Origin: an uncultured bacterium | GTDB taxonomy: Bacteria; Auribacterota; JAFGBW01 | Reading direction: 5' to 3' | Assembly (NCBI GenBank): GCA_964443875.1 | Contig: CAYUET010000012.1 | Coordinates: 12,778 to 76,777 of the forward strand | DNA length: 64,000 bases | Shown: piece by piece, positions 23,559 through 60,065 of the stretch | How positions within the stretch are numbered: position 1 is the first letter of the stretch | Layout of the letters: every line of letters begins with the position of its first letter | Program-made: the position numbers and the translations under genes | Notes under the pieces: model-generated | Database searches by the model: none | What the model was told of the DNA's origin: nothing | Seen by the model: the letters and a program-made list of their open reading frames with translations, nothing else

Positions 23559-25988
23559 TTAGGCGGCTTTTCTAAAGTCATTTTCGCTTTTAATAGACAA
23601 AGCGTGAAGGACATTCTTTGTTTCAGAGAATTTTTCCATAAGAAAATTATAAAATTCTTTTTTTCTGGAGTCCCCCGCTGCATTTTGAAGGAGGGAACCT
23701 AAAAGTTCAGATATGTAGGCTGTGTTGGTATTAACCTGGTTCCACATCCAGAATTTTAGTTGAGTATCCTGGATTTGTTTAAGCAGCGGAGGGGGAGTAA
23801 CCTTACCGTCCTTGTCCATGCTCCCATAAAGATTCTGATAGGTGATATCTTTGATTTCTTTAGATTTTTCTTCATTAGTATTAGGATCAGGCTTCTCATA
23901 TCCGAAGTTTGTGGCCCCTCTGATCGTGCCGTCAGGCATTGTCCCCTGAAGGCATATTCGTCCAAGATTTTCGTAACCCTCTGACATGGAGCCGTCGGTT
24001 TGAACAACAAAATTGTTCATATCCCCCTTGAAAACGATCCAGTCCATTTTTTTATCCCTATATTTTTCCAAGTCGTTATGCCCCATAAACAGGCCAGCTC
24101 TTATTTTCCGTTGTTTGAAGGAATCGGTTCCTCCGGTAATCGAGGGAAGCGCTTTATGTCCACCGTAATCGATAAATTTCTGTATGGATTCAGGCTTGGC
24201 TGTTTTCTTGGTATCTGAATACCAGGCGTCAACAATACTCAGGATGTCTCCGATTTCCTGCCACATAATTTCACGCAATTTTTTAGACTCCTGAGGATTT
24301 TGCATCAGACCTATGAATTTTTGTCTGGAATATTGGGAGAAGAATTTCTGGACATTGTTTTGCATGGCCTCCAGAGCTTTAAGGCCTTTACGACCCTTAT
24401 AAGAGACATCGAAATCCTCTATTATGGGATTTTTATTTTCATCGAGAGTTTCCTTAACGGGTAAGATACTATGCCAGTGGAGATTCCCGAAAGGGTCAAT
24501 ATAAAAAAGTCTGAAGTGTCGGCCCACCCAGTAGGCATGTTCCAGCACCTCTTTATCTTTTGAATAGTCCTCCAGATTCAATGGGTAAAAAGTGAGTTCT
24601 GGAAAATGAGTCCCCCTGGATTCATTAAGGGCAATCATTTTTTTATTTCTGTCGGTAATCTGCTCATCAAGAAATTTCAAAGTTCCTTCCATAATGCCGG
24701 GCACGTCTTGTTTTTTACCCTCTCTTCTGCCTTTTGCGATGTCGGAATTGATTTTTTTGAGTCTTTTGACTTCCGGTTCAAGAAATTTCTCTCTGTAGTC
24801 CAAGATATCGATGGGGGCAAGAGCATCCTCTCCTTTAAGTTTGTATTTTTTATTGTAGGAATCAATCAGGGCATTGATTCTTTCCTGATTGAGTTCATCC
24901 ACTTCATTGGATCCCCATGCAGCATGGTAAACGGCTTCATGAGCCCAGTACGCCGGATGATTACTTGCTTCCTCGGCTGGGCCTTTGAATTCTCCTTTTT
25001 CAAACCATCCGGAAAATTGTTCAAGCTCATGAACCCCTAACACCCCCATCATACGCCAGAGATCATGGTTCCCGACAATAAATTTTCCGATGTGAAGTTC
25101 GCTTGTTAAATACTCCACTAGTCTGTGAGATTCTACAGGATATTTCCCGCGATCCGGGATGTCCGACATAGCTACAATCCGGATATATTTTTCCTGGGGT
25201 TTAATGTTGTTTTGTTCCAGGGCTTTTTTCAAATCCTTAACCGTAAAGAGGTTTTTATATTCACGGAGTCCGAGGGTATAGGCAATAAGAGGAATAAGGC
25301 GTCTGGCGCCCCCATGAATATCCGAAATTGCGGCAATGGTGGGGATTTTTCCGTCACCAGGATTCTTCAGTTCATTGAAAAACTGTTTATTAAGCCAGCA
25401 GAGCTCCAGAAGTTCTTTTTCCCCCTTGCCGAAGTTGAAAACAAAAGAGTCGAGAGAAAGGGTGAGGTTGACATGAGAGTTAAAAGCATCAAGGCTGGTG
25501 GCTTCTTCCTTGTTCATAAATTGATATTTGTTCTGAAACAGGAGATCAAACTGATGGTAACCCTCAGGGGTTAATTCTCCTTTTTCGTAAAAATATTGGG
25601 AATGTTCATCAAGTTCACTCCATTTTTGGATTTCTTCGAGCGTATGAAGGGCGAAAGGATCAACGCCCTCAAGGACTTTAAGTGCAAATGTAAAGCGGTC
25701 AGACAAGGGGTATTCCTGAATCTTATGTTTTAGAAAGATCAATCTGGCTTTTGTATGGAGATCTGTCTGAAGGATTTTATCCGTTCGGATTGTTTTTAGC
25801 CTGTTTTCATTATTTTGTTTCCATAAATCAAGTTCTTTGAGAGCCATTTCCAGGTTGGAGGGGTTTAGTGATTTTGGCGCAAGGCAGCATCGCCTCTCTG
25901 AATCGGCGTGCAGAAAATTGACAGGAAAAAACAGCATTCCTGTGAAAAAGAGAAGAAATAAGATGTGGATTTTATAAATTTTTTTCAT
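23559..25988 (-). CDS. large secreted calcineurin-like metallophosphoesterase domain protein
   Basis: Signal peptide. Metallophosphatase motifs SDIHGG, MSDIPDRG, VGNHDLW and GHxH-like. 809 aa with long flanking helical regions. Confidence 0.55.
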   Translation of the reverse strand: MKKIYKIHILFLLFFTGMLFFPVNFLHADSERRCCLAPKSLNPSNLEMALKELDLWKQNNENRLKTIRTDKILQTDLHTKARLIFLKHKIQEYPLSDRFTFALKVLEGVDPFALHTLEEIQKWSELDEHSQYFYEKGELTPEGYHQFDLLFQNKYQFMNKEEATSLDAFNSHVNLTLSLDSFVFNFGKGEKELLELCWLNKQFFNELKNPGDGKIPTIAAISDIHGGARRLIPLIAYTLGLREYKNLFTVKDLKKALEQNNIKPQEKYIRIVAMSDIPDRGKYPVESHRLVEYLTSELHIGKFIVGNHDLWRMMGVLGVHELEQFSGWFEKGEFKGPAEEASNHPAYWAHEAVYHAAWGSNEVDELNQERINALIDSYNKKYKLKGEDALAPIDILDYREKFLEPEVKRLKKINSDIAKGRREGKKQDVPGIMEGTLKFLDEQITDRNKKMIALNESRGTHFPELTFYPLNLEDYSKDKEVLEHAYWVGRHFRLFYIDPFGNLHWHSILPVKETLDENKNPIIEDFDVSYKGRKGLKALEAMQNNVQKFFSQYSRQKFIGLMQNPQESKKLREIMWQEIGDILSIVDAWYSDTKKTAKPESIQKFIDYGGHKALPSITGGTDSFKQRKIRAGLFMGHNDLEKYRDKKMDWIVFKGDMNNFVVQTDGSMSEGYENLGRICLQGTMPDGTIRGATNFGYEKPDPNTNEEKSKEIKDITYQNLYGSMDKDGKVTPPPLLKQIQDTQLKFWMWNQVNTNTAYISELLGSLLQNAAGDSRKKEFYNFLMEKFSETKNVLHALSIKSENDFRKAA

Positions 25989-26145: not shown

Positions 26146-27060
26146 ATGGATAGGAGAGCGGCCTTTATCATTTCCCTCATCATGGCGGTGATCGCCGTCC
26201 TGATGGTTAAAACCTACATCAATAATCAGAAGGTGAAAGCCACAAAAAATCTGGATCTTGTCACCGTGGTTGTGGCGGGTAAAACGATCCAAAAAGGGGC
26301 ATCCTTATCTGAATCCAATCTTAAAACAGGGCAGTTTCCTGAAAAATATGTCGGGGAAAGGGAAGTCCGCGCGGACAATGTTTCCATGATTTTAGGTAAA
26401 AAGGTCATTAATAATCTGGAAGAGGGCAAGCCGGTCTTATGGTCGGATGTGGAGCTTGAGAAAAGTGAAGGCTTTGCCTCTGTGATTAAGGCCGGAATGA
26501 GAGCGGTAACCGTTCCTGTTTCCAGTCTCTCCTCCATCAGCAATATGATACGCCCGGGTTCCCGTGTGGACCTCCTTTTAACTTTCGATAAATCACGTAT
26601 CGAAGCTAAAAAAGAGGATGCCAGAAAGGATTCCGGAGAGGTTGTTCCGGATATGAAGAACATTCAGGCTTTCCGGGAGTATCTGATGCAGAAATACACG
26701 AAGCCCGGAGAGTCCAGTCAGATGACCGTCCTTTTAAAACAGAATGTTCTGGTTTTGGCTGTGGGGCAAAAGTATATGGGAGATGAAATGCCATCGAGAA
26801 AGCAGGACAGTTACTCGGAAGTGACTCTGCTGGCGACGCCCGCTGCCGCCCAGGAACTGGTGCATGCGCTGACCATGGGGCAGATTTCCTTTATTTTGCG
26901 TAATGATACGGATGTGGAAAAAAATGTGGTCACTCCCTCAACGGATGATTCGGTTTTCAGGTCTGCCATTACGGCCTCCATTTCTCAGACAGGGGAAGAG
27001 GTTTCTGAAGCCAAACCGGCTGAGTCTGACGGGCAGAGCGTTCAGCCGGAAGTTCAATAA
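26146..27060 (+). CDS. cpaB: Flp/Tad pilus assembly protein CpaB (RcpC-like, SAF domain)
   Basis: N-terminal TM anchor, then VVVAGKTIQKGASLSESNLK (SAF) and a CpaB C-domain, followed by an acidic Ser/Thr-rich tail. RBS AGGAGG. Confidence 0.75.
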   Translation: MDRRAAFIISLIMAVIAVLMVKTYINNQKVKATKNLDLVTVVVAGKTIQKGASLSESNLKTGQFPEKYVGEREVRADNVSMILGKKVINNLEEGKPVLWSDVELEKSEGFASVIKAGMRAVTVPVSSLSSISNMIRPGSRVDLLLTFDKSRIEAKKEDARKDSGEVVPDMKNIQAFREYLMQKYTKPGESSQMTVLLKQNVLVLAVGQKYMGDEMPSRKQDSYSEVTLLATPAAAQELVHALTMGQISFILRNDTDVEKNVVTPSTDDSVFRSAITASISQTGEEVSEAKPAESDGQSVQPEVQ

Positions 27061-27064
27061 TTTT

Positions 27065-28642
27065 ATGGCATTCCTTCTGTTCAGGGATAATACACGGACG
27101 GATTTGACCAGCCTTCTTCCCGGTCAGGAAAAGGTATTCGGTTCCGCCTATGATTGTGATATCCAGTCTTTTGAGGCAAAGGTCGCAGAACGTCATGTGG
27201 TTTTTTTTAAACAGGGAGAGGATTATTACCTGAAACCCTTTTCCAAAAAAAATTCATTTTTTATTCAGGACAGGGAAGAAAATAATGAAACGCTTCTTAA
27301 ACATAAGGATGTGATCCGCATCGGAGAAGACCGCCTGGAGTTTTATCTCCGTGAGCCTGATCAGGGGACTCCGGAGGAACGAAAAGATCAGCTTAAAATG
27401 AAGCTTCACAAATTTCTTCTGGAGAGAATCAATTTAAAAAAGATCCGCAGCGGAGACGACAGTCTGAAAACTAAGGCCCTGGAGATCATTGAACAGCTTA
27501 TTAATGAATTTGAGACGGAGATCATAAAGCTTTGCCCGAAAGAAGTTTTTAAAAAAGAGATCACAAATGAGGCCTTAGGGCTTGGTATTCTGGAGGAGTT
27601 TCTTTCAGATCCGGAAATAACGGAAATCATGGTTAAAAATGCCAGAACGATTTATCTGGAAAAGAAGGGTAAACTTCAGCCTGCACAGAAGACCTTTTTA
27701 AACAATGAGCAGCTTTTGGGAGTCATTGAGCGGATTGTGTCACCCCTGGGCCGCAGAATAGACGAAAGCTCTCCCATTGTGGACGCCCGTTTGTCTGATG
27801 GGTCCCGTGTGAATGCGGTCATCCCGCCTATCGCTCTCGACGGTCCTGCGCTCACCATCCGTAAATTTTCGAAAACCCCTTTCAAGGTTCCTGATCTGAT
27901 CCGATTCGGAGCCTTAACTGAAGACATGGCGGCTCTCATTGGCCTTGCCGTTAAGTACCGTCAGAACATCGTTATTTCAGGGGGAACAGGATCAGGAAAA
28001 ACCACCCTTCTCAACGTGTCGGCTTCCTTTATTCCTTGCGATGAACGTATTGTAACCATTGAAGATTCAGCGGAGCTTCAGCTTCCCCAGGATCATGTTA
28101 TCCGACTGGAGGCAAGACCAGCCAATATAGAGGGCAGGGGACGCATCAGCATCCGGGATCTGGTGATTAATTCTCTGCGTATGCGTCCTGATCGCGTGGT
28201 GGTAGGCGAATGCCGCGGCGGTGAATCTCTGGACATGCTTCAGGCCATGAATACGGGGCATGACGGTTCCATGACCACGCTTCACGCGAACGCCCCCAAG
28301 GATGCCCTGGCAAGGCTTGAAACCATGGTCCTTATGTCCGGCATGGAGCTTCCTTCACGGGCTATCCGCGAACAGATCGCCATGGCCGTGAATATCATCA
28401 TTCAACAGGCCCGGCTTGCGGACGGTCAGCGCAAGATTACCCATATCACGGAGATTACAGGGATTGATGAAACGGAAATACATTATGAGCATATTGTCCT
28501 TTTCCGTCAGACCGGAATTTCTCCGGATGGAAAAATTTTGGGACAGCATGAGTTTACAGGTTATATTCCCCGGTTTATAAAAGTTCTTCAGGAAAAGGGA
28601 ATAGAGATGCCTATGAATCTTTTTGCTCAGAAACCAGCCTGA
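27065..28642 (+). CDS. cpaF: Tad secretion ATPase CpaF/TadA with N-terminal FHA-like domain
   Basis: Walker A GGTGSGKTT and the T2SS-E family signature. The N-terminal ~100 aa (DYYLKPFSKKNSFFIQDREENNETLLKHKDVIRIGEDRLEF) resemble an FHA fold. The track ORF begins at 26903, but the in-frame ATG at 27065 follows the cpaB stop. Confidence 0.85.
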   Translation: MAFLLFRDNTRTDLTSLLPGQEKVFGSAYDCDIQSFEAKVAERHVVFFKQGEDYYLKPFSKKNSFFIQDREENNETLLKHKDVIRIGEDRLEFYLREPDQGTPEERKDQLKMKLHKFLLERINLKKIRSGDDSLKTKALEIIEQLINEFETEIIKLCPKEVFKKEITNEALGLGILEEFLSDPEITEIMVKNARTIYLEKKGKLQPAQKTFLNNEQLLGVIERIVSPLGRRIDESSPIVDARLSDGSRVNAVIPPIALDGPALTIRKFSKTPFKVPDLIRFGALTEDMAALIGLAVKYRQNIVISGGTGSGKTTLLNVSASFIPCDERIVTIEDSAELQLPQDHVIRLEARPANIEGRGRISIRDLVINSLRMRPDRVVVGECRGGESLDMLQAMNTGHDGSMTTLHANAPKDALARLETMVLMSGMELPSRAIREQIAMAVNIIIQQARLADGQRKITHITEITGIDETEIHYEHIVLFRQTGISPDGKILGQHEFTGYIPRFIKVLQEKGIEMPMNLFAQKPA

Positions 28643-28659: not shown

Positions 28660-29553
28660 ATGACTGAAACAGTCGTTTTACTTTTGCTTTTTCTTTCCCT
28701 CGCTTATTCCTTCTTTTTTTTATTTTCCAGAGTTGTCCTTGAAAATCCTCTCCGCCGGTTTCCAAAATCTTCCGGCGGCAAGCTCAGCGAAGAGGATCTT
28801 CAGAAAAGACTCCGGGAATATGAAGAAAATTTTATTTTTGTCACGCCGCAGAAGCTGAAATCCCGTCAGCAGAGTTATTCCATTCTTTTCGGGATGATCG
28901 GGCTTCCCGGTTTTTTCGGCGGAGCGGGGTCTGGTATTTTTTTATGTCTGATTCTGGCTCTTGCCGGATATTTTGTTCCGCTTTTAATGATCCGATCCGA
29001 GGTGGAAAAAAGGAGGAAAGCTTTTGCCTCACAGATTCTGGACATGCTGGAAACGGTTTCAAACGGTCTTAAGGCGGGGCTTTCCTTTTCACAGGCTCTG
29101 GAAGCCGCTGCAGAACAGACTCCAGATCCAATGGGGGAAGAACTTCATTATCTGCTTCGCCAGAACAGTCTGGGGGTGAATCTGGATGACGCGCTTGCCA
29201 AAATGGCGGACCGGATGAAAAATGATAATTTCAGCCTTGTGGTTTCTGCTGTAACGGTTACCCGTCAGCTTGGAGGTAACCTCCCTGAAATTTTTAAATC
29301 GATCGGAGAAACCCTCCGGGAGCGTGAAATGATGGAAGGAAAGATTATTGCTCTGACTTCCCAGGGCCGGATGCAGGCCGCTTTGATGGGCGCCATGCCT
29401 TTTCTGCTCATGATCGGAATTTATTTTCTGGATAAGAAAACCATCCTGCCTCTTTTTATAACCCCCATGGGGTGGGGGCTTCTGACGGGGATGGTTTTTT
29501 TGAATGCGGTGGGATTTATTGTGATCAAGAAAATTGTAGACATTGACATATAG
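28660..29553 (+). CDS. tadB: Tad inner-membrane platform protein TadB (T2SS-F domain)
   Basis: T2SSF-like helical domain with flanking TM segments. 297 aa. RBS AAGGAGGA. Confidence 0.75.
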   Translation: MTETVVLLLLFLSLAYSFFFLFSRVVLENPLRRFPKSSGGKLSEEDLQKRLREYEENFIFVTPQKLKSRQQSYSILFGMIGLPGFFGGAGSGIFLCLILALAGYFVPLLMIRSEVEKRRKAFASQILDMLETVSNGLKAGLSFSQALEAAAEQTPDPMGEELHYLLRQNSLGVNLDDALAKMADRMKNDNFSLVVSAVTVTRQLGGNLPEIFKSIGETLREREMMEGKIIALTSQGRMQAALMGAMPFLLMIGIYFLDKKTILPLFITPMGWGLLTGMVFLNAVGFIVIKKIVDIDI

Positions 29554-29562
29554 GGAGAGCCT

Positions 29563-30480
29563 TTGATGGGAGTTGTTTATCTTATTTATCTCATCGTCTT
29601 TTTTGCGGCGGGTATTGCCGGATATGCGTTTCTGATCTCATTTAAGGGCAGGAGACCGATGCCCTCCATTCACGGAGCCCCGCGGAATCCGCGGCATGAG
29701 TCCGTAAAATTTTTTTCAGACCGGGCTCAAAAAACATTCCCCTTCCTTTATAAAAATAAAAGGGTGGCGCCTATTTTCCGGAAACTTGAAAATCTTCTGG
29801 ATAAGGCCGGCCTTTCCAGTGAATATTCTCCTGAGGAATTTTTCACCTTTTCTCTTCTGGGATCCGCTTCCGGATTTATTCTTTCTGTGCTGAGCACCCT
29901 GGCCTTGTTTTATTCAGAAACTGTAGACGAGTTTGGTTTTTTACATGCGTTTATTATTATTGTTCTTTTTACCGGTTTCGGATATTTCGGCCCTTTCATC
30001 AAATTAAACGAGCTCATCAGCGCCCGAAGGAAGTCAATTTTAAGGGCTTTGCCGTTTACTCTCGACCTCATTACGGTTTCCGTGGAAGCAGGACTTGATT
30101 TTGGAAACGCGGTTCAGAGGATTATCGACCGGGGAGAGATGAATGAACTTCATTATGAATTTTATCTTTTTTTAAATGAAACCAAGCTCGGGAAACGGAA
30201 AATAGATGCCCTGGAGCGGATGGCGAAACGGATTGATATTCCCAGGGTGACTTCGATTTTAGGAAGCCTTATGCAGGCTGAAGAACTCGGTATGAGGATC
30301 GGACAGATTCTTAGAATCCAGTCCCAAAGCCTGAGGACACGGCGAATGCAGACAGCTGAAAAATCTGCTTTGGAGGCCCCGGTGAAAATGCTGATCCCTC
30401 TTGCCATTTTCATATTTCCCGCAGTATTTATTGTGCTTTTAGGGCCCATGATCATTCAATTCATGACCCGGGGAGGATAA
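29563..30480 (+). CDS. tadC: Tad inner-membrane platform protein TadC (T2SS-F domain)
   Basis: Second T2SSF-like protein directly after tadB. 305 aa. TM helices at both ends. Confidence 0.7.
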   Translation: MMGVVYLIYLIVFFAAGIAGYAFLISFKGRRPMPSIHGAPRNPRHESVKFFSDRAQKTFPFLYKNKRVAPIFRKLENLLDKAGLSSEYSPEEFFTFSLLGSASGFILSVLSTLALFYSETVDEFGFLHAFIIIVLFTGFGYFGPFIKLNELISARRKSILRALPFTLDLITVSVEAGLDFGNAVQRIIDRGEMNELHYEFYLFLNETKLGKRKIDALERMAKRIDIPRVTSILGSLMQAEELGMRIGQILRIQSQSLRTRRMQTAEKSALEAPVKMLIPLAIFIFPAVFIVLLGPMIIQFMTRGG

Positions 30481-30482
30481 AA

Positions 30483-30842
30483 ATGATTAAGGCAGCACTC
30501 ACAAACCGAAGTAAAAATGTCGTTGTATTGCCAAAGCTTCTGGTTACGGATACACTTATGGAAAAATGCAAAGGGCTTATTCCCTTTAAAGGGCTCTCTC
30601 CGGATGAGGGGCTTTTGATTCCCGGATGCAGAAGTATTCATACCTTTTTGATGCGGTTTTCCATTGATTGTTATTTTTTAGATGAGGAGAACAAAGTGCT
30701 TAAAATTGTAAGGAATGTGGAACCCTGCAGAATGTCTTTTGGCGCCTGGGGAACAGAACATGTGCTGGAGGTTTCTTCTGAAAGCGGTAAAACTCTGAAT
30801 ATAGATCTCAACGATCTGCTTGAAATCAAGGAGACGGAATGA
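30483..30842 (+). CDS. DUF192 (COG1430) domain protein
   Basis: 119 aa. The GLSPDEGLLIPGCRSIHTFLMRFSIDCYFLD...VLKIV pattern matches the DUF192 family. Confidence 0.55.
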   Translation: MIKAALTNRSKNVVVLPKLLVTDTLMEKCKGLIPFKGLSPDEGLLIPGCRSIHTFLMRFSIDCYFLDEENKVLKIVRNVEPCRMSFGAWGTEHVLEVSSESGKTLNIDLNDLLEIKETE

Positions 30843-31807
30843 AAACAGACATCAAATTTTTCCTGTTTCTGATTCAGTTGGTTATTCTCGGAGGGTGTCT
30901 GCCCTCGCTTAATCCGGATCCATGGAAACAATACGAGGAATCCCGGCATGGAATCCGGTTTGAACTTCCCGATTTGATGATCCGTACCACCAAAAAAAAC
31001 CTGTGGGGATTTAAGGAATGGAAAGATCCCCAGCTTCCCTTGACCTTTACTTTTAAGGCCGGATGGAATCAGGATCTGCGCTTTTTTCCGCTGGAAATGT
31101 GTCTGGACATGTATTTTTCCTCTTATAGGGCCAAATATCCCCGAAGTGCACTTTACGTGGATTCTATTATTCCTTTTATTCTCAGTTCAGGGATTCAGGC
31201 CATAGGGTTTAATGCCATTGACGGGGATACTCTTTTTCAGGGAATTTATACCGTCGAAAACAACCGCTATTATATGATTTTTCTCAAATATCCCAAAGAA
31301 ATGGCTGAGAAAAAAGAGGTGAAAGAGCTTTGGAGCCGTCTTAAAAAGACACTGAGTATTATCCGTCTGCCGGATCACCGAAAATATCTTAAACATCTTT
31401 TAAATGAAAAACAGGGGGAGAAAAAAGCCAATATCAAAGATATTCTTGACTATGGACAGCAGCTTATGTCGCTAAAGGAGGCCTACTCAAAGAATTATCC
31501 TCAGGCCATCATGGAATTCAGAAAGGCTTTGGGAATCATGGAAAACATGACGCCTAAACCTTCAGAGTTTCACAGGGCACTGCGTCTCATTTTTATAGCC
31601 CGAGAGCTGCAGAGAAAAGCCTATGAAAAACATTATACTCTGCTGACCGCCGCCGTTAAACTTTCTAAATGGGAAGAAGCCAGAAAGGAAGCGCTGATTC
31701 TGCTGGAACTTTTAAGTGATGACCGTGAAAATCCTCAGGCCAAGGCGGCCAGAGACAATTACCGGTTTGTCATGAAGTCTTTATCCAAGGCTCAAAAACA
31801 GGAATAA
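30839..31807 (+). CDS. hypothetical lipoprotein (lipobox LGGC)
   Basis: Signal peptide ending VILGGCLPS. Otherwise unrecognised, with a helical TPR-like C-terminus. Translationally coupled to both flanks. Confidence 0.45.
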   Translation: MKTDIKFFLFLIQLVILGGCLPSLNPDPWKQYEESRHGIRFELPDLMIRTTKKNLWGFKEWKDPQLPLTFTFKAGWNQDLRFFPLEMCLDMYFSSYRAKYPRSALYVDSIIPFILSSGIQAIGFNAIDGDTLFQGIYTVENNRYYMIFLKYPKEMAEKKEVKELWSRLKKTLSIIRLPDHRKYLKHLLNEKQGEKKANIKDILDYGQQLMSLKEAYSKNYPQAIMEFRKALGIMENMTPKPSEFHRALRLIFIARELQRKAYEKHYTLLTAAVKLSKWEEARKEALILLELLSDDRENPQAKAARDNYRFVMKSLSKAQKQE

Positions 31808-31812
31808 GAATC

Positions 31813-33567
31813 ATGTATGTAATTATTGTCAAAAATCAGTCCGGTTCTGAAGTTGTGAGATATGCAACAGGTTCATTAAGGGAAGCGGTTTCACTGGGAA
31901 AAAGTCCGGAGAATCCCATTGTCGTGAATGATCCTTCCATTTCTGAAAAACATTGCGCCTTTGAATTTGATGGAAAAAAAATTTCCATCCGGAATTTAAA
32001 AAGCCGCAATGGGATCATTTTAAACGGGGAAAGAATAAAAACGGAAAAAGCGGAGGTTACAGAAACAGATGAAGTCCGCATTGGAGATTTTTTGATTTCC
32101 TTTCTGTGGGAAGGAAGCTCGGAGGATCTTCTCCCGTCAAAGAAGAAAAGCCGGGAGACACTGTTCACCTGGATTCTCTCTTTTCTTCTTTTGACTTTTT
32201 TAGGATGGAACATCCGTCCTCTGCCTGAAAAGGAAATTTTTATTCCCCCTCTTGCCCCTCTTGAAGCGAAAAAATCCGATTCTGAAACTCCCGGAAAGAG
32301 CACCTGGCAAATCCTTCTTTCCAAAGCCAAGGATGCCTATTTTAACGATTCAATCCTTGAGGCGGCAAAGCTTTTTAAACAGGTGCTTGAGCAGCAGCCG
32401 CAGAATATGGGGGCGATGAATTTTCTTGAACAGATCCGGAAGGAAATGATTCCCAAATTGGAAGAAACCATTAAAACCACTATTGCAGAACGGAATATTG
32501 TGACTTGTGCAGCAACAGTGGAGGAACTGAAAATTCTTGATCCCGGCAATATCTGGATTGAAAAAGCCCAGGGGCTTCTGGAGGGATATAAGAAATTTGA
32601 TGAGGTCCGGAAGCTTTATGAATCGCATCATTTCAGAGAGGCTCAGAAAAAGATTCAAAATATAGTGCTGGTGGATGAAGAAACGCTGGAGGAATGGGTC
32701 GGCAAAGTCAATCATGAGGTTAAGGTCACAGAAAATTTTCGAGGAATCCTTACCCGTTACCGTTCAGGTCCTATTTCACAATCTTATAAAGAGCTTAAGC
32801 CATTCCTGGAAACTGAAACCGAACAGAAAGATCTTCTTTCACTGGCACGCCAGAAACTCCAGCTTGTGAAACGTTTCGCCGGGTTTAAAGAGCTGCAGAA
32901 ACAGGATCCCCTTAAACAGACTTCTTTCGGGGTTGCGCTGCTCTATGATCTTTCTGAAAAAGAAGATCCCTTCATTTATCATCAGGTCAATCAAAGACTT
33001 GAAGAGCTGACAAAACAATGCGGTCCTGGAACAGAATTCTATATTCTTCTCAATGAAGATACCGCCACTCAGCTGGATCAGGCCAGGGATTATAAAAAAA
33101 TTCATGAATACAAACAGTCTCTCAGCAATTACCGGAGTGCCCTGAATGGACTCAGAATTCTTTCTTTTTTTTCAAAAGATTCGAAATTCATAAAACAGGA
33201 AGGGGAGGTTTATCAGGAAATTCTCAGTTATCAGGCTTCCCTTAAGAAAAGAGTTGAAGAGCTTCACCAGATCAATGAATCTGACTTTGCCCGACAGTTA
33301 TCAGATCTTCTTGCCCGTTTTAGGGTTTATCCCAATAAAACGGTACTGGCAGCGACAGAGGAATTATATCAGGGAGAGGGGGATGACAAGGCGCTGATCC
33401 GGGAGATTTTCAGTACTGATGCCGGGACTTCTTTTCAGGCTGCTCCGGTGAACAAAGCAGAAAAAAAGACAGCCGAGGCTAATAACTCCACGAACGTTAA
33501 CAGAGCCACCCCCGACCTTTCTGTTTCTGCCGGAAATTTTTTCATTTCCCGGCCGGAAGAGACATGA
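31813..33567 (+). CDS. membrane-anchored FHA-domain protein with TPR-like periplasmic region
   Basis: N-terminal FHA domain (SLGKSPENPIVVNDPSISEKHCAFEFDGKKISIRNLKSRNGIILNGERI). A single TM helix (WILSFLLLTFLGW) and a long helical C-terminal region follow. Confidence 0.7.
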   Translation: MYVIIVKNQSGSEVVRYATGSLREAVSLGKSPENPIVVNDPSISEKHCAFEFDGKKISIRNLKSRNGIILNGERIKTEKAEVTETDEVRIGDFLISFLWEGSSEDLLPSKKKSRETLFTWILSFLLLTFLGWNIRPLPEKEIFIPPLAPLEAKKSDSETPGKSTWQILLSKAKDAYFNDSILEAAKLFKQVLEQQPQNMGAMNFLEQIRKEMIPKLEETIKTTIAERNIVTCAATVEELKILDPGNIWIEKAQGLLEGYKKFDEVRKLYESHHFREAQKKIQNIVLVDEETLEEWVGKVNHEVKVTENFRGILTRYRSGPISQSYKELKPFLETETEQKDLLSLARQKLQLVKRFAGFKELQKQDPLKQTSFGVALLYDLSEKEDPFIYHQVNQRLEELTKQCGPGTEFYILLNEDTATQLDQARDYKKIHEYKQSLSNYRSALNGLRILSFFSKDSKFIKQEGEVYQEILSYQASLKKRVEELHQINESDFARQLSDLLARFRVYPNKTVLAATEELYQGEGDDKALIREIFSTDAGTSFQAAPVNKAEKKTAEANNSTNVNRATPDLSVSAGNFFISRPEET

Positions 33568-35921
33568 GCTATCTGATTTCTGTTTTTTATTTTTTTATGC
33601 TGAGTTTGATTTCTTTTCAGGTTTTTGCGCTGGATACCCTTTTAGGGGATGAAGAGGAAGGCTTTTATCTCAACTGGCCTGAAAAGGAATGGGCCTTTGA
33701 AGCGGAAGAAAGAAAAGAAACCCGACAGACCATTTCACTCCTGAAAATTCAGCAGGAACCTTTTCCGGAAAGAGCCATTTTAACTGCAGAGCCTCGGCCT
33801 GAAGAGGGTTTTTCTGCTTTTTTTGATTTTTATCTGGAAAACGAAAAGAAACAAATTCCAGGAGCTGAAATTGAAATTCTGCCTCAAAGCATCAAAGGGG
33901 AATATGATAACCGGCTTTTTGTTCTTTATGACAGAAAACAGGAAGGCCATTCTTCTGCCTCGGTTATTCTTCTGATTCAGGGACAGCGTTTTTTATATGG
34001 TGTAAGAAGGAAAACGAATTCTTACTCCTCAGGCTTTATTAAAGATTCTGCCGCTTTTCTATTAAAAGGATGTATTCTTGATTCCAAACAGTTATTGCAA
34101 ATCAGAAAACAAAGAGCAGAGGTTGAAGAGGAAAAGATAAAAGAGATAAAAAGCGCGGAGAAGAAGGCCTTTGAATCGGATACAGAAGAGCTGCTTTCTC
34201 TTGTCCGGGATGAGGGAATTGAGGAAAAAGAAGAGCCGGTGGAGTTAACTGTTTATAAATTTAAAAAACAGAAAAAAGAAAAAAACGGGAAAAGTCTTTT
34301 AGAACAAAAAGCGGAAGACTTCTTCCCTCAGAAAGCGCTGAATGAAGAACGGACCCCTGTTGGGGAAACAGCCATCACTTCAGAAACAGAAAAATTATCC
34401 ATTATTTGGGAAGCTGCAGAAGACTGGACAATTTTTTCTGCTCCGGTTCAGAAAATGGAAAAAATGGGAGAAGGTGAGTCCGTAACAACAAAAAGCATCA
34501 AGGTTTATCATTCCCGGGAGAATGAGGATGACTGGACGGAAACCGGAGAAATGAAAATGTCAGGAGGTCCTTTGAAGGAGGGGGAATCTGCAGATAAATT
34601 TCTTGAAGAGTATATTCATAAGATTTTTCAGGATGAATTGAAAAATGACCTGCAGGCCTCTCTTGAGATCACGGAAGATCGGCTTGCGGAATCCGATGCT
34701 TCACGGATTTTTATCATTAGGGCGACAAAGGAAAAAGTGCCGAATATTCAGTTTTACCTGATTCTTTTCGGGAATAAGGGTTTTTATGAAATCAACAGGA
34801 AAAAACGTGGGGAAGAGGTTTTCTTCGTTTCCAGGAAAAAGTTCATTCATTTTTTAAAAAAAGCAAAACTCACTGATTCAGGATTGACGGGGAGGGATGC
34901 TCAAAAATCCGAGAATGAGGATATGGATGAAAACACAGAGGATTCGGAAAAATCAGACCAGGATGACACGGACTCCGGAGATGGGAAAGAGGGGAAGGAG
35001 GATTGGGATTCCAGCACAGACACGGATACTCTTACAGATATCATTACCGATACAGATACAGAGACCGGAACAGGAATAGAGACAGGGACAAAGACAGATA
35101 CCGATACAATAACAGATACGGAAACACTTACGGATACGGACACCCGGACAGGAACGGGAACCGGAAGCGGGACAGGAACGAAGAGGGATACGGATACAAA
35201 GACAGACACGGATACCCTTACGGATATCATAACCGATACAAATACAGAGACCGGAACAGGAATAGAGACAAGGACAAAGACAGATACGGAAACACTTACG
35301 GATACGGACACCCGGACAGGAACGGGAACCGGAAGCGGGACAGGAACGAAGAGGGATACGGATACAAAGACAGACACGGATACCCTTACGGATATCATAA
35401 CCGATACAAATACAGAGACCGGAACAGGAACGGGCACTTCTATTCATACTCAGACCAGAACAAATACAAAAACCGGAACGAGTACTTCAACATCGACAAA
35501 AATCATAACCAAAACCTCTACGGCTACAGAGACTGCAACGAATACTGGAACTAAAACTTCCACCAACACGCATACCCGTGTGGATACATCGACCAAGACC
35601 TCAACAGGCACGAGTACGGATATTACTGAAGAGGAATCAAATGCCATGGAGCAGCAGGAGCAGCAGGAGGAGGCTGATAAAACCAACAAAATGTTTGACG
35701 ATCAGAGGAGAACTCTGATTAAAAAGCATCTGGATAATATTTTGGAAACAAAAGAAGCTTATGAAGCTAAAAGCGGAAATAATGCAGCCTCTTCCCATCG
35801 GAATTATCGTATAAATGCAGAGGAACAGGATTGGGGACAGGCAAGGATCACAATCAATGATATTGAAAAACGCCGGAAGGAATTTAACGACTTAATGAAT
35901 AAGTCAGAGGAAGAGGAGTGA
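33564..35921 (+). CDS. secreted protein with ~200-aa Thr-Asp/Thr-Gly dipeptide tandem-repeat tract
   Basis: Signal peptide. N-terminal ~440-aa domain, then (TD/TG/TE/TK)n tract with 56-60-aa higher-order repeats, then a short acidic/coiled C-terminus. Coupled to the upstream FHA gene (ATGA overlap). Confidence 0.55.
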   Translation: MSYLISVFYFFMLSLISFQVFALDTLLGDEEEGFYLNWPEKEWAFEAEERKETRQTISLLKIQQEPFPERAILTAEPRPEEGFSAFFDFYLENEKKQIPGAEIEILPQSIKGEYDNRLFVLYDRKQEGHSSASVILLIQGQRFLYGVRRKTNSYSSGFIKDSAAFLLKGCILDSKQLLQIRKQRAEVEEEKIKEIKSAEKKAFESDTEELLSLVRDEGIEEKEEPVELTVYKFKKQKKEKNGKSLLEQKAEDFFPQKALNEERTPVGETAITSETEKLSIIWEAAEDWTIFSAPVQKMEKMGEGESVTTKSIKVYHSRENEDDWTETGEMKMSGGPLKEGESADKFLEEYIHKIFQDELKNDLQASLEITEDRLAESDASRIFIIRATKEKVPNIQFYLILFGNKGFYEINRKKRGEEVFFVSRKKFIHFLKKAKLTDSGLTGRDAQKSENEDMDENTEDSEKSDQDDTDSGDGKEGKEDWDSSTDTDTLTDIITDTDTETGTGIETGTKTDTDTITDTETLTDTDTRTGTGTGSGTGTKRDTDTKTDTDTLTDIITDTNTETGTGIETRTKTDTETLTDTDTRTGTGTGSGTGTKRDTDTKTDTDTLTDIITDTNTETGTGTGTSIHTQTRTNTKTGTSTSTSTKIITKTSTATETATNTGTKTSTNTHTRVDTSTKTSTGTSTDITEEESNAMEQQEQQEEADKTNKMFDDQRRTLIKKHLDNILETKEAYEAKSGNNAASSHRNYRINAEEQDWGQARITINDIEKRRKEFNDLMNKSEEEE
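35020..35420. repeat. near-perfect tandem duplication (~168-180 nt unit, ~2.3 copies) inside the TD-repeat gene
   Basis: The unit cttacggatatcataaccgatacaaatacagagaccggaacaggaatagagaca...gacacggatacc recurs at ~35027, ~35217 and ~35385 with only a few substitutions. Confidence 0.8.
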
Positions 35922-36280
35922 TTATAATGCAGGGAATTTTATTTTTGGTCTATGGAGCCATAGTGGGAATTTTTTCTTCCTTTATGGGGGTTGGGGGAGG
36001 TATTCTGATCATTCCTCTTCTGCTGATGCTTGGGTACACTCCTCAGAAAGTGGTTGGAACCTCCTTTATGGTGATTCTTTTAATATCTCTTTCAGCCCTT
36101 TTGGCTCACAATAAATTGGGGCATATTGACTATAAAATAGGAGCTCTCCTCGGGATCGGAGGCATCCTGGGAGCCCAGTTTGGAGCAGTGCTGGTTAAAG
36201 ATATTTCTCCGGAGGTTTTTAAAAAGATTTTTGCAGTATTTCTTGTCGTGATGGGGATCTACCTGTTTGTGAAAAAATAG
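35918..36280 (+). CDS. half-size TauE/SafE (DUF81) family membrane protein
   Basis: 120 aa with 4 TM helices. MGVGGGILIIPLLL and GILGAQFGAVL motifs are typical of one half of TauE/SafE sulfite-exporter-family proteins. Coupled to the upstream gene. Confidence 0.5.
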   Translation: MIIMQGILFLVYGAIVGIFSSFMGVGGGILIIPLLLMLGYTPQKVVGTSFMVILLISLSALLAHNKLGHIDYKIGALLGIGGILGAQFGAVLVKDISPEVFKKIFAVFLVVMGIYLFVKK

Positions 36281-41266: not shown

Positions 41267-43360
41267 TCAAGTTTTGCTTTTCAACAACTGAAGACCTGGC
41301 GATGCCATTCCCTTCGGGGAAAACATAAAGTAAATAATGGTTTCATCCCTGTAATCCCGCTGCAGTAATCGCGTTGAAAAATCAAGGCAGTGCATGCTTT
41401 TAATAATGGCGATTTCAGAGCGTTCGACCAGGGATTGGCCGGTATTGTAGTAGGCGTAACCGCGTATAAAAATATCATCTGAAAAATTAAAGGAGAGTTC
41501 CGGTGCGACAATTTCGTCTTCATTCTCACCCCTGTACCAGTAAAAACAGGAGAGCCCGACTTTATTACTGAATCTCCAGGAAAGATCTGTTCTGAAATCA
41601 TCTGTCCGGTTTTCCGCCATGTTGTATGTCCAGTAAAGATCAATCATGGTATTGTCCGTGGTGCGGATCTGTGAATCAACCCCCAGGTCTGTCCAGTTAT
41701 CGTCTTTTGCTTCAAAATCATAGGTGATAAAATAGCGGGTGTTCAGGAGTGTTTTAATTTTACCGTCTTTTTTTCCCTGCCATCTGGAAATCAGGTTAGG
41801 GGTCAGGGTGTTTGTTTCAGGACGGGAATCATATTCATCAAACTGTATGATATCGTGATCTTCAAGATCGGGTTCCGGTCTGAAAAAGTATTCCAGGCCA
41901 GGAGTAAGGATGTGCCGGAAACGGGAGCATCCCCATACGGGATTTTGCGTGTCAAAAACTTTTGTAAGATTTGTCGACAGGTCAACCGTGTAGTTTTGAA
42001 CCCAGCGAAGGTCTCCGTCAGCATATTCCCTTGAACCATCCGCCCGAATGGATTCCCCGAGGGTGTCGGAGTACCAGATTCCTTCAAGATCCACCCTGGG
42101 GTTGACATTAAGCCACCCGAAATATTTTTTGGAGTAGCTCAAGGATTCTCCCGTATATCCTCTTAAGGCGTCATATTCGATCTGGTTATCCGTAAAGTTT
42201 TGACGAAGGTTTGCCACGTGATTGTTGCTGGTAAAATAGAGATTGGTGTCGGTGCCCAGTTCAAATTCATAAATATTGAGATCATACTGGGGAAGGCGTT
42301 CCAGCATGTTATCGAAATTATTTGTTTTGAAGCGCATCGTCACTCCGGAGGAGTAATCTTCATCTGCATAATAGAGGCGGTAGCGGTTGTCCCACTGCAC
42401 GTTTTCATAGAATTCATCCCGGAAAAAATCTTCATAGATATCCGGGTCAGAATGCTTATTGACTTCAAGGGCTGATTTGAGTCCGTTTTTAAAACGGGTT
42501 GTGTTGTTCACAGAAATACGGTACCGGGACAGAGTGCCGGCCTCTTCAGTAGATTGATTAGGCTCAAACTCCTGGTCTTCAATAAAATAAGTGATCAGTT
42601 TTCCTTTGCTGTTTTTTGAAATCATTTTTGCATCAACACCCACTCCGACCCCCCTCTTGGTATAAAGATCAGCATTTGCAGTCGCCTTAACAGTGTTGGT
42701 TTTTAGGAAATCATAATGGGTAAGCGTTTCAAATCCATGTTCGCTTCCAACGCCGAAACGCACGCCGAAACGGGAATCTTCATTCAGGGAGCGTTTGTAC
42801 ACTGGAAAGTAGAAAATGGGAACAGGGCCAAGCCAGAAAGTCGCCTTTTTTGCAACGAATTCCCTGTCAGGAGAAAAAATGATTTCAGAAGCCGTCATGT
42901 AGAAATGAGGCTGGTCTTTGGTGCAGGTACTGACTCTGGCCTCCTGAATACGGATGGTGTTGTTTTCGATCTGCTCCACTTTGGTGCCGGTCATAATCCA
43001 GATTTCTTCAACCGTAGAGGCATTGTTCATGACCCCGCGTTTGGCATCAAAATCATAGCTCACATCATCACAGAAAAAAATACGGTTCTTGTCTCTGATA
43101 AGAACATGTCCTGAGGCAACCGCTCTGCGTTCCTGGTTGTATAGTTTTGCTTCATCAGAGATAAGGGAGTAGTTATCTTTTTTAATGCACACATTCCCGC
43201 TGAAGTTGCTGACATTGTTTTCATAATCGAAATCGACTTTATCCGCGTTCATTTGAACGCCTTCAGTCATGTCCGCCGCCTGAAGCAGAAAAGAGAAAAG
43301 GGCAATACTGCAAAACAGCATCGACCTTTGCAGTAAATCATTATAAACGCAGGATCTCAC
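41267..43360 (-). CDS. lptD: LPS-assembly outer-membrane protein LptD (OstA family)
   Basis: Signal peptide, OstA-N-like beta-jellyroll (FSGNVCIKKDNYSLISDEAKLYNQERRAVASGHVLIRDK) and a large C-terminal beta-barrel. 697 aa. Confidence 0.8.
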   Translation of the reverse strand: MRSCVYNDLLQRSMLFCSIALFSFLLQAADMTEGVQMNADKVDFDYENNVSNFSGNVCIKKDNYSLISDEAKLYNQERRAVASGHVLIRDKNRIFFCDDVSYDFDAKRGVMNNASTVEEIWIMTGTKVEQIENNTIRIQEARVSTCTKDQPHFYMTASEIIFSPDREFVAKKATFWLGPVPIFYFPVYKRSLNEDSRFGVRFGVGSEHGFETLTHYDFLKTNTVKATANADLYTKRGVGVGVDAKMISKNSKGKLITYFIEDQEFEPNQSTEEAGTLSRYRISVNNTTRFKNGLKSALEVNKHSDPDIYEDFFRDEFYENVQWDNRYRLYYADEDYSSGVTMRFKTNNFDNMLERLPQYDLNIYEFELGTDTNLYFTSNNHVANLRQNFTDNQIEYDALRGYTGESLSYSKKYFGWLNVNPRVDLEGIWYSDTLGESIRADGSREYADGDLRWVQNYTVDLSTNLTKVFDTQNPVWGCSRFRHILTPGLEYFFRPEPDLEDHDIIQFDEYDSRPETNTLTPNLISRWQGKKDGKIKTLLNTRYFITYDFEAKDDNWTDLGVDSQIRTTDNTMIDLYWTYNMAENRTDDFRTDLSWRFSNKVGLSCFYWYRGENEDEIVAPELSFNFSDDIFIRGYAYYNTGQSLVERSEIAIIKSMHCLDFSTRLLQRDYRDETIIYFMFSPKGMASPGLQLLKSKT

Positions 43361-54307: not shown

Positions 54308-55369
54308 CTATCGGCCAGCGGAGATCTTCTTTAAAAGATTAGTATAATTTTCAACTTCAGCAGCATTTGAATTTTTGGAATAAAAATCAATCAGATTATT
54401 TATGGTCAAAGCCAAGGAAGGATGATTAGGGCCCAGCTTTTTTTCGCAGATGCTCAGGGATTCCTTTAAAATGGCTTCGGCTTCTTTTTTACCCTGCAGA
54501 TTATAGAGACTTCCCAGGTTATTAAGGGATTTTGCGTATTCCAGGGAGTTTTTACCCGGATTGGTTGCTTTTATTTTAGCGGACAATCTGAAATAGGACT
54601 CCGCATCCTGGAGATTCCCTTTCATCTGGCTCAGCAACCCCAGATAATCATAGGAAAAAGCAATTTTTTTGGATTCCTTATTTTTATCATAGATGCCGAA
54701 AGATCTTAAAAAAGCCTCCTCAGCTTTTTTATAATTCTTCAGATTAAAGTGAAATTTACCGATAGAAAAATAAACATCAGCAGTGGGATTACTCTCTTCC
54801 CCGTTTTTCCCCTTGGAAATTTTAAGGGCTTTTTCATAGCTTTCAAGCGCTTTTTCCTCTTTTCCGAAACTTTGATAAAACGTTCCAAGATCCAGATAAA
54901 GAGAAATGGTTTCAGGATGATCAGCTCCCATATTGATTTTTTTAATTTCAATGGCCTTTAATAAATACTTTTCCCCGTCATTGAAATTTTTCAGACTCTG
55001 GCAGATTTCTGAAAGGGATTTATACATGCTGACAAATAAGGGATCATTGGGGGAGGCAATTTTGGTTTTACAATCTGCGGCCAGTTTAATGATGGTCAGG
55101 GCTTCTTGATATTGCCCGGACTGTTTACAGAGAATTCCCTGATTGACAAGGAATACAACCGCATCCGCTGAAACCATCTGATTATTCTGAAAGGAGGTCT
55201 GAATTTGGTTCACATAAGGCGCCCCCAGGGCACAGGCTTTTTGGACTTGCCCGTTTTTAAAGAGCTGAATCATTCTTTGATTCAGCTCAATCCAGCTGAT
55301 TTCTTCACAAAAAAGTCCTGCTCCTGTAAAGAAGAGCAGAAAAAGACACCCTAATGATTTGTACAACAT
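54308..55369 (-). CDS. secreted TPR-repeat protein (paralog of 60066..61124)
   Basis: Signal peptide and 7-8 TPR_10/12-like repeats (e.g. AESYFRLSAKIKATNPGKNSLEYAKSLNNLGSLY). 33 nt downstream of the TonB-dependent receptor gene on the same strand. Confidence 0.7.
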   Translation of the reverse strand: MLYKSLGCLFLLFFTGAGLFCEEISWIELNQRMIQLFKNGQVQKACALGAPYVNQIQTSFQNNQMVSADAVVFLVNQGILCKQSGQYQEALTIIKLAADCKTKIASPNDPLFVSMYKSLSEICQSLKNFNDGEKYLLKAIEIKKINMGADHPETISLYLDLGTFYQSFGKEEKALESYEKALKISKGKNGEESNPTADVYFSIGKFHFNLKNYKKAEEAFLRSFGIYDKNKESKKIAFSYDYLGLLSQMKGNLQDAESYFRLSAKIKATNPGKNSLEYAKSLNNLGSLYNLQGKKEAEAILKESLSICEKKLGPNHPSLALTINNLIDFYSKNSNAAEVENYTNLLKKISAGR

Positions 55370-55402
55370 TTTGTTCCTTCAGATCTTTTATATGACCTAA
55401 TT

Positions 55403-60026: not shown

Positions 60027-60065
60027 TTAATGGCTTTAGGCTAACGTTTTAAAAGGATTTAAGTT

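Follow-up and report, generated by a model that had tools for sequence, protein, structure and literature searches.

The 64,000-nucleotide (nt) stretch analysed here (contig CAYUET010000012.1, positions 12,778 to 76,777, of an uncultured bacterium of the Auribacterota; hereafter the window) carries at 33564-35921 of the plus strand a gene for a protein of 785 amino acids (aa), in which threonine alternates with other residues over a 201-residue tract. This gene, referred to below as the target, is the penultimate gene of an operon resembling those for Tad-like machines, in particular the Kil apparatus of Myxococcus xanthus. On balance, we consider it probable that the target is exported as an accessory protein of this Kil-like Tad machine, and that its (Thr-X)n tract serves as an extended, hydrophilic and non-globular spacer. 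The target family is previously undescribed and very rare, and dipeptide-repeat spacers themselves are an established concept.

The tract occupies residues 485-685 (35016-35618), where D, G, K, S and E account for most of X. Thr is present at 89 of the 101 in-phase positions, the remaining 12 being occupied by I, S, R or V, two of them by Ser; Thr never occurs out of phase, and the alternation does not slip over all 201 residues. Asp accounts for 27 of 204 tract residues, and 35 acidic residues stand against 18 basic ones. The motif TDTDTLTDIIT occurs in three copies. A total of 6,460 stop-to-stop open reading frames (ORFs; 1.19 million residues) from the window and 86 loci was scanned for periodicity. 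One and the same residue at at least 17 of 20 in-phase positions was found only in the target family and its antisense shadows, and the tract is therefore far beyond chance expectation. Three VSV/CIC-rich ORFs, at 34901-35437 (minus strand), 34953-35447 (minus strand) and 35003-35554 (plus strand), overlap the tract. These antisense and off-frame ORFs, already taken as spurious in the initial annotation, were rejected as genes because they are shadows of the tract.

At the DNA level, 35016-35430 (plus strand) is a tandem repeat consisting of unit 1 (186 nt), unit 2 (168 nt) and a partial unit 3, as detected by Tandem Repeats Finder and direct comparison. Tandem Repeats Finder gave a period of 168 with 2.3 copies and 90% matches for 35016-35430, and the same period with 1.9 copies and 100% matches for 35112-35430. 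By direct comparison, 35112-35262 is identical to 35280-35430 (151/151 nt), and unit 1 differs from unit 2 by an in-frame insertion of 18 nt and 5 substitutions, 163 of the 168 aligned nt being matched. The Thr-dipeptide tract of about 200 aa and the approximately 2.3 near-identical copies described in the initial annotation were thus both confirmed.

The target starts with an ATG overlapping the stop codon of the upstream gene (ATGA). Its N-terminus is a predicted Sec-type signal peptide (residues 1-22, 33564-33629) with a VFA/L site, the sole hydrophobic segment of the protein. A cleavage-type site is found in all four known N-termini of the family, VFA/L in the target, and AFA/L, VFA/L and ASA/L among the relatives P0002, P0003 and P0004 (see below). 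This conservation is in agreement with the earlier description of a secreted protein, and the target is probably exported via the Sec signal peptide. The following segment (residues 23-173, 33630-34082) is modelled by AlphaFold2 as a PsbP/DUF1795-like alpha/beta domain with a predicted local distance difference test (pLDDT) score of ~80-88. Next to it are an E/K-rich long helix (residues 174-215) and a disordered linker with pLDDT below 50 (helix and linker together, residues 174-268, 34083-34367), and then a second alpha/beta domain (residues 269-438, 34368-34877; pLDDT ~60-83), whose strands and helices follow each other as in domain 1. Similarity between the two domains is weak (24% identity over 86 aa, E = 0.021 by BLASTP). 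An acidic linker rich in D, E and S (residues 439-484, 34878-35015; pLDDT ~25) leads into the tract. Behind the tract is a conserved C-terminal helical hairpin (residues 689-785, 35628-35918; helices 689-736 and 741-784, pLDDT ~65-74), which includes the motifs NKMFDDQRR and NAEEQDWGQ..ITINDIEKRRKE and an acidic tail. For this C-domain, identity to the two full-length homologues amounts to 64% and 53%. In the AlphaFold2 model, which was built on a three-sequence alignment, the whole segment of residues 439-693 has a pLDDT of ~25 and is flanked by confidently modelled domains.

In Foldseek searches against the PDB, the N-domain matched PsbP, 3lyd, EagT6 (DUF1795), PA94, DcrB, LpqN, MTC28, Apa and Tsi3 (probability 1.00, target TM-score 0.47-0.61, E-values from 6.5e-4 to 1e-2). 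As judged from structure only, the N-domain therefore shares the alpha/beta sandwich topology of the PsbP, EagT6 and DcrB group, and its modelled fold is typical for small envelope or chaperone-like binding proteins. Most members of the wider group (PsbP, DUF1795, DcrB, LpqN, MTC28 and Apa) are extracytoplasmic or chaperone-like binders. In contrast to this similarity in fold, the sequence identity is only 8-17% without a Pfam or PDB sequence match, and neither a dipeptide tract nor the C-terminal hairpin is present in any of the matched chains, which are 100-190 residues long. For the whole target, no Pfam family at E <= 0.01 and no NCBIfam family was found, including the curated profiles of PsbP, DUF1795 and DcrB. 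No significant sequence match in the PDB was found when the N-domain, C-domain or tract served as query; for the tract, the best E-value was 0.3.

Only about six relatives of the target were detected among billions of proteins. The window protein itself is not on record by exact look-up, and the genome of the window is not within the species-representative collection. A homologue search with the non-repeat N-domain, as had been suggested in the initial annotation, yielded among 5.8 billion sequences only the protein itself and P0002 (56% identical). Searching 1.84 billion representatives in full with a HMMER profile revealed a remote full-length homologue, P0003 (831 aa, E = 1.5e-23; GenBank EKD27491.1, 'hypothetical protein ACD_79C00700G0001', from the Rifle aquifer), and the fragment P0004, while a profile search with the C-domain added the fragments P0005 and P0006. 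N-domain alignment scans of species-representative genomes and JGI metagenomes gave no relative. When the tract was used as query, four weak unannotated matches were found among the matches listed, and its own family was not recovered owing to composition filters, so that this search is no gauge of how frequent such tracts are. Tracts of T-D, T-G, T-E and T-S are also carried by a few unrelated and unannotated metagenomic proteins, among which P0008 and P0009 start with signal-peptide-like sequences. No Pfam or PHROG family was found for the T-X proteins P0007, P0008 and P0009. Since unrelated proteins carry T-X tracts, the period-2 Thr tract must be a sporadic device and not a family-specific one.

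The Thr alternation is maintained by selection at the protein level. In a codon alignment of the tract region between the window and the contig L001, which encodes P0002, 76 of the 78 aligned tract Thr are also Thr in P0002, and the codon is different in 50 of these 76. Among the non-Thr positions, by comparison, 50 of 95 are identical. Nucleotide identity between the window and L001 is 0.68 in the tract and 0.70 in the N-domain. Because Thr is kept while its codons differ, the alternation is not a by-product of young repeats. The Thr phase is unbroken, with no Thr out of phase, in four relatives. The remote homologue P0003 has no Thr tract in its middle region. Instead, a stretch rich in D, N, G and K is followed by a 67-residue Pro-X tract, in which Pro is present at 32 of 34 in-phase positions and at none out of phase. 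The distance from the end of the N-domain to NKMFDDQRR is broadly similar in the three full-length proteins (267, 253 and 311 residues).

The repeat units themselves turn over within this frame. The motif TDTDT(L/I)T(D/E)IIT is present in three copies each in the window and L001, and the array must therefore be old. Within the first 60 nt of the units, the window units match each other at 56-60/60 and the first two L001 units at 58/60, the divergent third L001 unit matching the other L001 units at 40-41/60; between window and L001 units, the match is 39-45/60. Over the full length, unit identity is 97% within the window and 87% within L001, in contrast to 78-81% between the two genomes. Overall, unit identity ranges from 97 to 100% inside the window and from 73 to 81% across genomes. 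The units are thus homogenised within each genome and evolve in concert, as is typical for unequal exchange or gene conversion. Each full-length member has its own in-frame duplication, of 168 nt (56 codons, 100% identical), 126 nt (42 codons, 89%) and 117 nt (39 codons, 96%). Since the three members each bear their own near-identical duplication, the tract region is a hotspot of length change. The initial annotation had described a recent tandem duplication and a likely length-variable locus. The locus is indeed prone to length change and the repeat is recent, but what was taken as a single new duplication is better described as ongoing homogenisation of an old array. All units are multiples of three, and of six in the T-X part, so that copy-number change spares both the reading frame and the Thr phase. 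Such frame-neutral units argue for length variation and against on/off switching. Two related contigs begin inside the T-X tract (L084 at 1-30 and L085 at 1), and in L086, a contig of the same species as P0003, runs of N at 9760-9862 and 6400-6500 lie inside the Pro-X tract and the gene for the FHA-membrane protein, respectively. The repeats of this family evidently break or mask assemblies.

One element of the tract appears to be shared by all full-length members. The pair 'II' with acidic or Thr flanks (TDIITDT) occurs three times in the window (residues 492-496, 554-558 and 610-614; 35046-35054, 35232-35240 and 35400-35408) and three times in the orthologue P0002, and aligns with the single DDIIDDD of P0003 (residues ~625-631). 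This pair represents the only columns of the tract region that are apparently conserved in all three full-length proteins. The D-I-I-T/D micro-motif may be a short linear motif or docking site.

The operon starts with a CpaB/RcpC-type Flp pilus assembly protein (26146-27060, plus strand, as are all genes of the operon; Pfam RcpC 3.6e-23 and SAF; NCBIfam TIGR03177 pilus_cpaB 5.6e-42, above cut-off). It is followed by a CpaF/TadA-type ATPase with an N-terminal FHA domain (27068-28642; T2SSE 2.2e-60, FHA 6.7e-10), a TadB-like (28660-29553; T2SSF 7.5e-19) and a TadC-like platform protein (29563-30480; T2SSF 4.5e-11) and a DUF192 protein (30483-30842; 1.7e-13). Next to them are a lineage-specific lipoprotein of 322 aa with the lipobox LGGC (30839-31807), the start of which overlaps the DUF192 stop and for which no Pfam or NCBIfam family was found, and an FHA-membrane protein of 584 aa (31813-33567; FHA 3.1e-15, Yop-YscD_cpl 2.4e-11). 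By Pfam and hydropathy, the latter consists of an FHA domain (residues 26-91), a membrane helix (116-134) and a predicted extracytoplasmic region of ~450 aa. The target follows, and a half-size TauE/SafE-family membrane protein of 120 aa (35918-36280; TauE 1.4e-26, profile positions 2-111 of 237), its GTG start overlapping the target stop, is the last gene. All junctions from TadC through half-TauE are 4-nt overlaps or gaps of 2-6 nt. The genes for RecO and PriA come next after the operon on the opposite strand. The core set of a Tad system, CpaB/RcpC, the CpaF/TadA ATPase, TadB and TadC, is thus present in one operon. Two FHA domains had been placed immediately upstream of the target in the same operon; both are indeed in the operon, but only one adjoins the target, the other being fused to CpaF about 5 kilobases (kb) upstream.

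The neighbourhood of the target is conserved in related contigs. The L001 contig is fully syntenic where covered (TadC, DUF192, lipoprotein, FHA protein, target, half-TauE, RecO and PriA), the lipoprotein and the FHA-membrane protein each being 78% identical, and in the fragments L083, L084 and L085 the neighbours are as in the window. In L086, which is longer, the remote homologue ends an operon of the same kind with the order CpaB, FHA-CpaF, TadB, TadC, lipoprotein, FHA-membrane protein and target. Identities to the window are 59% for CpaB, 68% for FHA-CpaF, 58% for TadB, 50% for TadC, 41% for the lipoprotein, 51-54% for the FHA-membrane protein, 50% for the target C-domain and 26% for the target N-domain, which is the most divergent of the regions compared. 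The lipoprotein was found only in L001 and L086. In 80 other Tad loci fetched via CpaF, the lipoprotein, the FHA-membrane protein and the target are all absent beyond a generic FHA match. These three genes therefore form a conserved, lineage-specific extension of the Tad core. Among species representatives, the best CpaF identity is 58%, spread over many phyla, and that of CpaB is 29% or less; the lineage of the window is thus poorly sampled, and it appears to be deep.

Based on these observations, three lines of evidence favour the spacer: the tract is predicted to be disordered between folded and conserved modules; its composition is swapped within the family while the two-residue period with an extension-favouring residue stays; and the repeats turn over rapidly and in frame while the overall length stays in range. 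Thr and Pro both favour extended chains. The preserved trait would be the strict two-residue period itself, provided by the beta-branched Thr in the close clade and by Pro in the distant clade. We suppose that the target consists of folded modules linked by long unstructured stretches and is accessory to a type IVc pilus-like machine, the tract determining how far the C-terminal hairpin is from the N-terminal domains. The PsbP/DUF1795-like domains would then be the probable binding heads, the hairpin would probably dock onto another envelope component of the machine, and the triple D-I-I-T/D motif could provide short docking sites. Length and unit number would drift by in-frame duplication or deletion together with homogenisation, the Thr phase being kept. 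As a rough estimate, the 201-residue tract would span ~10 nm as a coil and at most ~65 nm when fully extended, and the 67-residue Pro-X tract ~20 nm in the polyproline-II form, roughly the dimension of a periplasm. It had been proposed earlier that a match of the N-domain to a well-known adhesin or S-layer family would explain the tract as a simple linker. The N-domain belongs to neither, but the family comparison does favour a spacer.

Several points weigh against this reading. The positional conservation of Thr exceeds the need of a passive linker, which hints at a specific structure or modification. The low pLDDT of the tract may be partly a product of the three-sequence alignment. The signal peptide of the target was called by inspection and hydropathy only, and the final site of the protein could be the periplasm, the outer membrane or the surface. 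The window yielded no secretin, pilin or prepilin peptidase, the search for secretin and peptidase having taken in window ORFs of at least 150 aa with no systematic search for small pilin genes elsewhere; between 25988 and 26146, there is no pilin-like small ORF. Finally, the copy number in the window is derived from one assembly, and related assemblies break there.

The best account of the positional conservation, Thr being kept while the codons diverged, would be given by a mucin-like stalk, part of either a surface adhesin or an exported substrate, in which dense O-glycans on Thr form a stiff and protease-resistant rod projecting the PsbP-like domains. The predicted export of the target is in line with such a stalk, and among the proteins of similar fold there are two antigens secreted by mycobacteria, MTC28 and Apa, the latter of which carries O-linked mannose on Thr. 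The Ser-Asp repeats of staphylococcal proteins, which are modified with N-acetylglucosamine (GlcNAc) and thereby protected against proteolysis, provide a further precedent (PMC3794999). We nevertheless consider a glycosylated stalk unlikely. No glycosyltransferase was found in the 64-kb window, and in three lineages neither a glycosyltransferase nor an oligosaccharyltransferase is encoded in or beside the operon, the nearest sugar genes being only a UDP-glucose dehydrogenase and an epimerase several kb off. Moreover, the distant homologue has Pro-X and D/N/G-rich sequence in this place, and the target carries neither LPXTG nor a beta-barrel anchoring signal. The strength of Thr conservation would also suit a tract that is functional by itself, either as a regular beta-structure with a Thr face, similar to ice- or mineral-binding proteins, or as a Ca2+-binding acidic array. 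A two-residue period is the signature of a beta-strand, AlphaFold2 placed short strands at 494-498, 554-562 and 570-578, and the excess of acidic residues fits the acidic array. The pLDDT of these strands is, however, ~25-30, the alternate Gly and Asp would disfavour stable sheets, and no solved structure gave a significant sequence match to the tract. Pro-X, which cannot form beta-sheet, replaces the tract in the distant homologue. A structured tract is therefore improbable in our estimate.

There is likewise little probability that the exact duplication is an assembly artefact and that the true copy number is other than 2.3. The exact repeat of 151 nt at a period of 168 nt is near the length of short reads, two related contigs start in the tract, and L086 has a run of N in its Pro-X tract. 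On the other hand, an independently assembled orthologue also has three copies of the motif, units 1 and 2 differ by the 18-nt in-frame indel and 5 substitutions, unlike an artefactual copy, and the reading frame and Thr phase are intact throughout; a wrong copy number would in any case leave the tract itself real. The last alternative is that a Ser/Thr kinase phosphorylates the tract and that the two FHA domains encoded in the operon bind the phospho-Thr, thereby regulating the Tad-like machine. FHA domains prefer pT-x-x-D and pT-x-x-I/L, and the tract pattern is similar, every Thr of the (TD)n run having Asp at +3 (21 of 88 tract Thr, with I or L at 10 more). The Kil system of Myxococcus is enriched in FHA proteins, and a role in signalling has been proposed there (PMC8460266). 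The two partners, however, appear to be in different compartments. The signal peptide conserved in the four N-termini would make the tract extracytoplasmic, whereas both FHA domains are predicted on the cytoplasmic side, that of the membrane protein because it is N-terminal to a single membrane helix preceded by KKKSR, and the second one being fused to the cytoplasmic CpaF ATPase. The canonical phosphate-binding residues of FHA domains are Gly-Arg, Ser-x-x-His and Asn, and these contacts are altered in both domains. The FHA-membrane protein has GK in place of the GR of the solved FHA domain 6hbz, as does its L086 counterpart, and keeps S-x-x-H and N. The CpaF FHA domain has S-A aligned to the G-R of 4jon together with A-x-x-H, and thus lacks the phosphate-contacting Arg and Ser. 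In addition, the 64 kb of the window yielded no Ser/Thr kinase, and L086 retains both FHA proteins yet has no Thr tract. The idea raised in the initial annotation, that the Thr tract is a partner of the FHA domains, is hence abandoned as very improbable.

If the tract is a spacer, it has precedents among known dipeptide-repeat spacers, the Ser-Asp repeats and the Glu-Pro/Lys-Pro domain II of TonB (PMC3794999; PMC10666116 and its reference 40). The Ser-Asp repeats of staphylococcal ClfA and Sdr proteins resemble the target in that dipeptides of a hydroxy residue and Asp lie between N-terminal binding and C-terminal anchoring regions of an exported protein, that the underlying DNA consists of short, degenerate repeats which readily change in length, and that the hydroxyl residue may be glycosylated (PMC3794999, PMC8561734). 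In contrast, the target has Thr instead of Ser with a varying partner residue (D, G, K, S or E), belongs to a diderm host and lacks LPXTG, its C-terminus being a charged helical hairpin that ends with EEEE. No SdgA/SdgB-like genes are near, the N-terminal fold is PsbP-like instead of immunoglobulin-like, and the operon is Tad-like. The target thus has neither of the two features that define Sdr/Clf proteins, a Ser-Asp repeat and LPXTG in a Gram-positive host. The diderm nature of the host follows from the LptD-like, TonB-dependent receptor and ExbB proteins encoded in the window.

Domain II of TonB is, like the tract, an extended and non-globular envelope segment of a diderm with a strict two-residue period. 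In TonB, the Glu-Pro/Lys-Pro repeats are believed to reach across the periplasm (PMC10666116 and its reference 40). The 67-residue Pro-X tract of P0003, in the position equivalent to the Thr-X tract, resembles it. The target differs in that it has neither the TonB anchor nor the TonB C-terminal domain, carries Thr instead of Pro and has a tract ~3x longer; no TonB family was found in Pfam and NCBIfam scans, and the N-terminus is of the cleavage type. By analogy, the tract would work like an SD-repeat or TonB-type spacer, and the target is a member of neither family. A (Thr-Gly)n run encoded by degenerate ACN-GGN repeats is also present in Drosophila Period. This run is length-polymorphic with ~17-23 pairs, and Period is a eukaryotic and intracellular protein. 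The Period run is much shorter than the tract, and its sequence context and function are unrelated.

For the operon as a whole, the closest described system is Kil, the Tad-like apparatus of Myxococcus xanthus for contact-dependent killing (PMC8460266). Both have a CpaF-type ATPase with an N-terminal FHA domain (KilF) and extra FHA proteins, lipoproteins and unknown genes around CpaB, TadB and TadC (PMC8460266). The window operon indeed combines FHA and T2SSE in one protein and encodes a second FHA protein. However, the myxobacterial loci L003, L008 and L013 lack the target, the lipoprotein and the extracytoplasmic part of the FHA-membrane protein, with only the FHA domains matching; the window showed neither a secretin nor a pilin gene, and predation is not implied.

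The tract is thus a low-complexity region under strong positional selection, in which the Thr period is kept while codons diverged and units were reshuffled. The presence of Pro-X in the same slot of the distant relative separates what is kept, the period and the extended character, from what is not, the composition. The lipoprotein, the FHA-membrane protein and the target represent a new and very rare accessory set for FHA-bearing Tad-like machines, the extra components of which are largely uncharacterised. If the tract acts as a ruler, it would provide a handle on how such machines span the envelope. A bolder form of the spacer model, which we hold to be distinctly unlikely in its full extent, is that the tract is a rigid ruler setting the envelope-spanning geometry of an undescribed FHA-equipped Tad-like machine in a deep and hardly sampled lineage; the ruler would probably bear dense O-modification of its Thr residues in the close clade and be a polyproline-II rod in the distant one. 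In this form, D-I-I-T would give multivalent docking, and T-X and P-X would be interchangeable in a 'period-2 spacer code' with the length tuned by duplication.

Some additional observations were made on the neighbouring genes. The mechanical ORF of the ATPase begins 165 nt further upstream, within cpaB (26903-27067). The real start is probably the ATG at 27068, since both the end of cpaB and the L086 orthologue agree with it; this orthologue (523 aa) aligns from query residue 55 with 68% identity. The lipoprotein was considered as a paralogue of the N-domain and rejected at the sequence level (hhalign probability 0.07), and its single-sequence AlphaFold2 model (pLDDT 46) was too poor and was not used. 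The half-TauE protein is 118-120 aa in four loci, in each directly after the target (35918-36280 on the plus strand of the window, 6182-6538 in L001, 620-976 in L084 and 580-936 in L085), and is absent from L086; it is a conserved short form and not a broken gene. DUF192 (COG1430) is found in 26 of the 80 Tad loci fetched via CpaF (L002-L081, from many phyla), downstream of TadC where coordinates are shown, and is absent from L086. It may be a common, unrecognised Tad accessory gene. No RNA families were found in the window, and scans for promoters and terminators gave no signals above the expectation from shuffled sequence, no internal terminator standing out.

The rest of the window is ordinary chromosome, including genes for DnaE, an LptD-like protein, DegP, ExbB and TonB-dependent receptors. 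Divergent from the Tad-like operon is the gene for a calcineurin-like phosphoesterase of 809 aa with a signal-peptide-like N-terminus (23559-25988, minus strand); its motifs DIHG, DIPDRG and GNHD resemble those of PPP-type phosphatases, and no NCBIfam match was found. The LptD-like outer-membrane protein (41267-43360, minus strand) shows a weak match to CT351, a Chlamydia locus-tag family (E = 7e-16, far below cut-off). Two adjoining large SPFH/Band-7 proteins of 520 and 603 aa are encoded at 5028-8398 (plus strand). At 54308-57400 (minus strand) and 58026-61124 (plus strand), pairs of genes for a TonB-dependent receptor (665/666 aa) and a TPR protein (352-353 aa) are arranged in mirror-image order, which looks like an inverted duplication.

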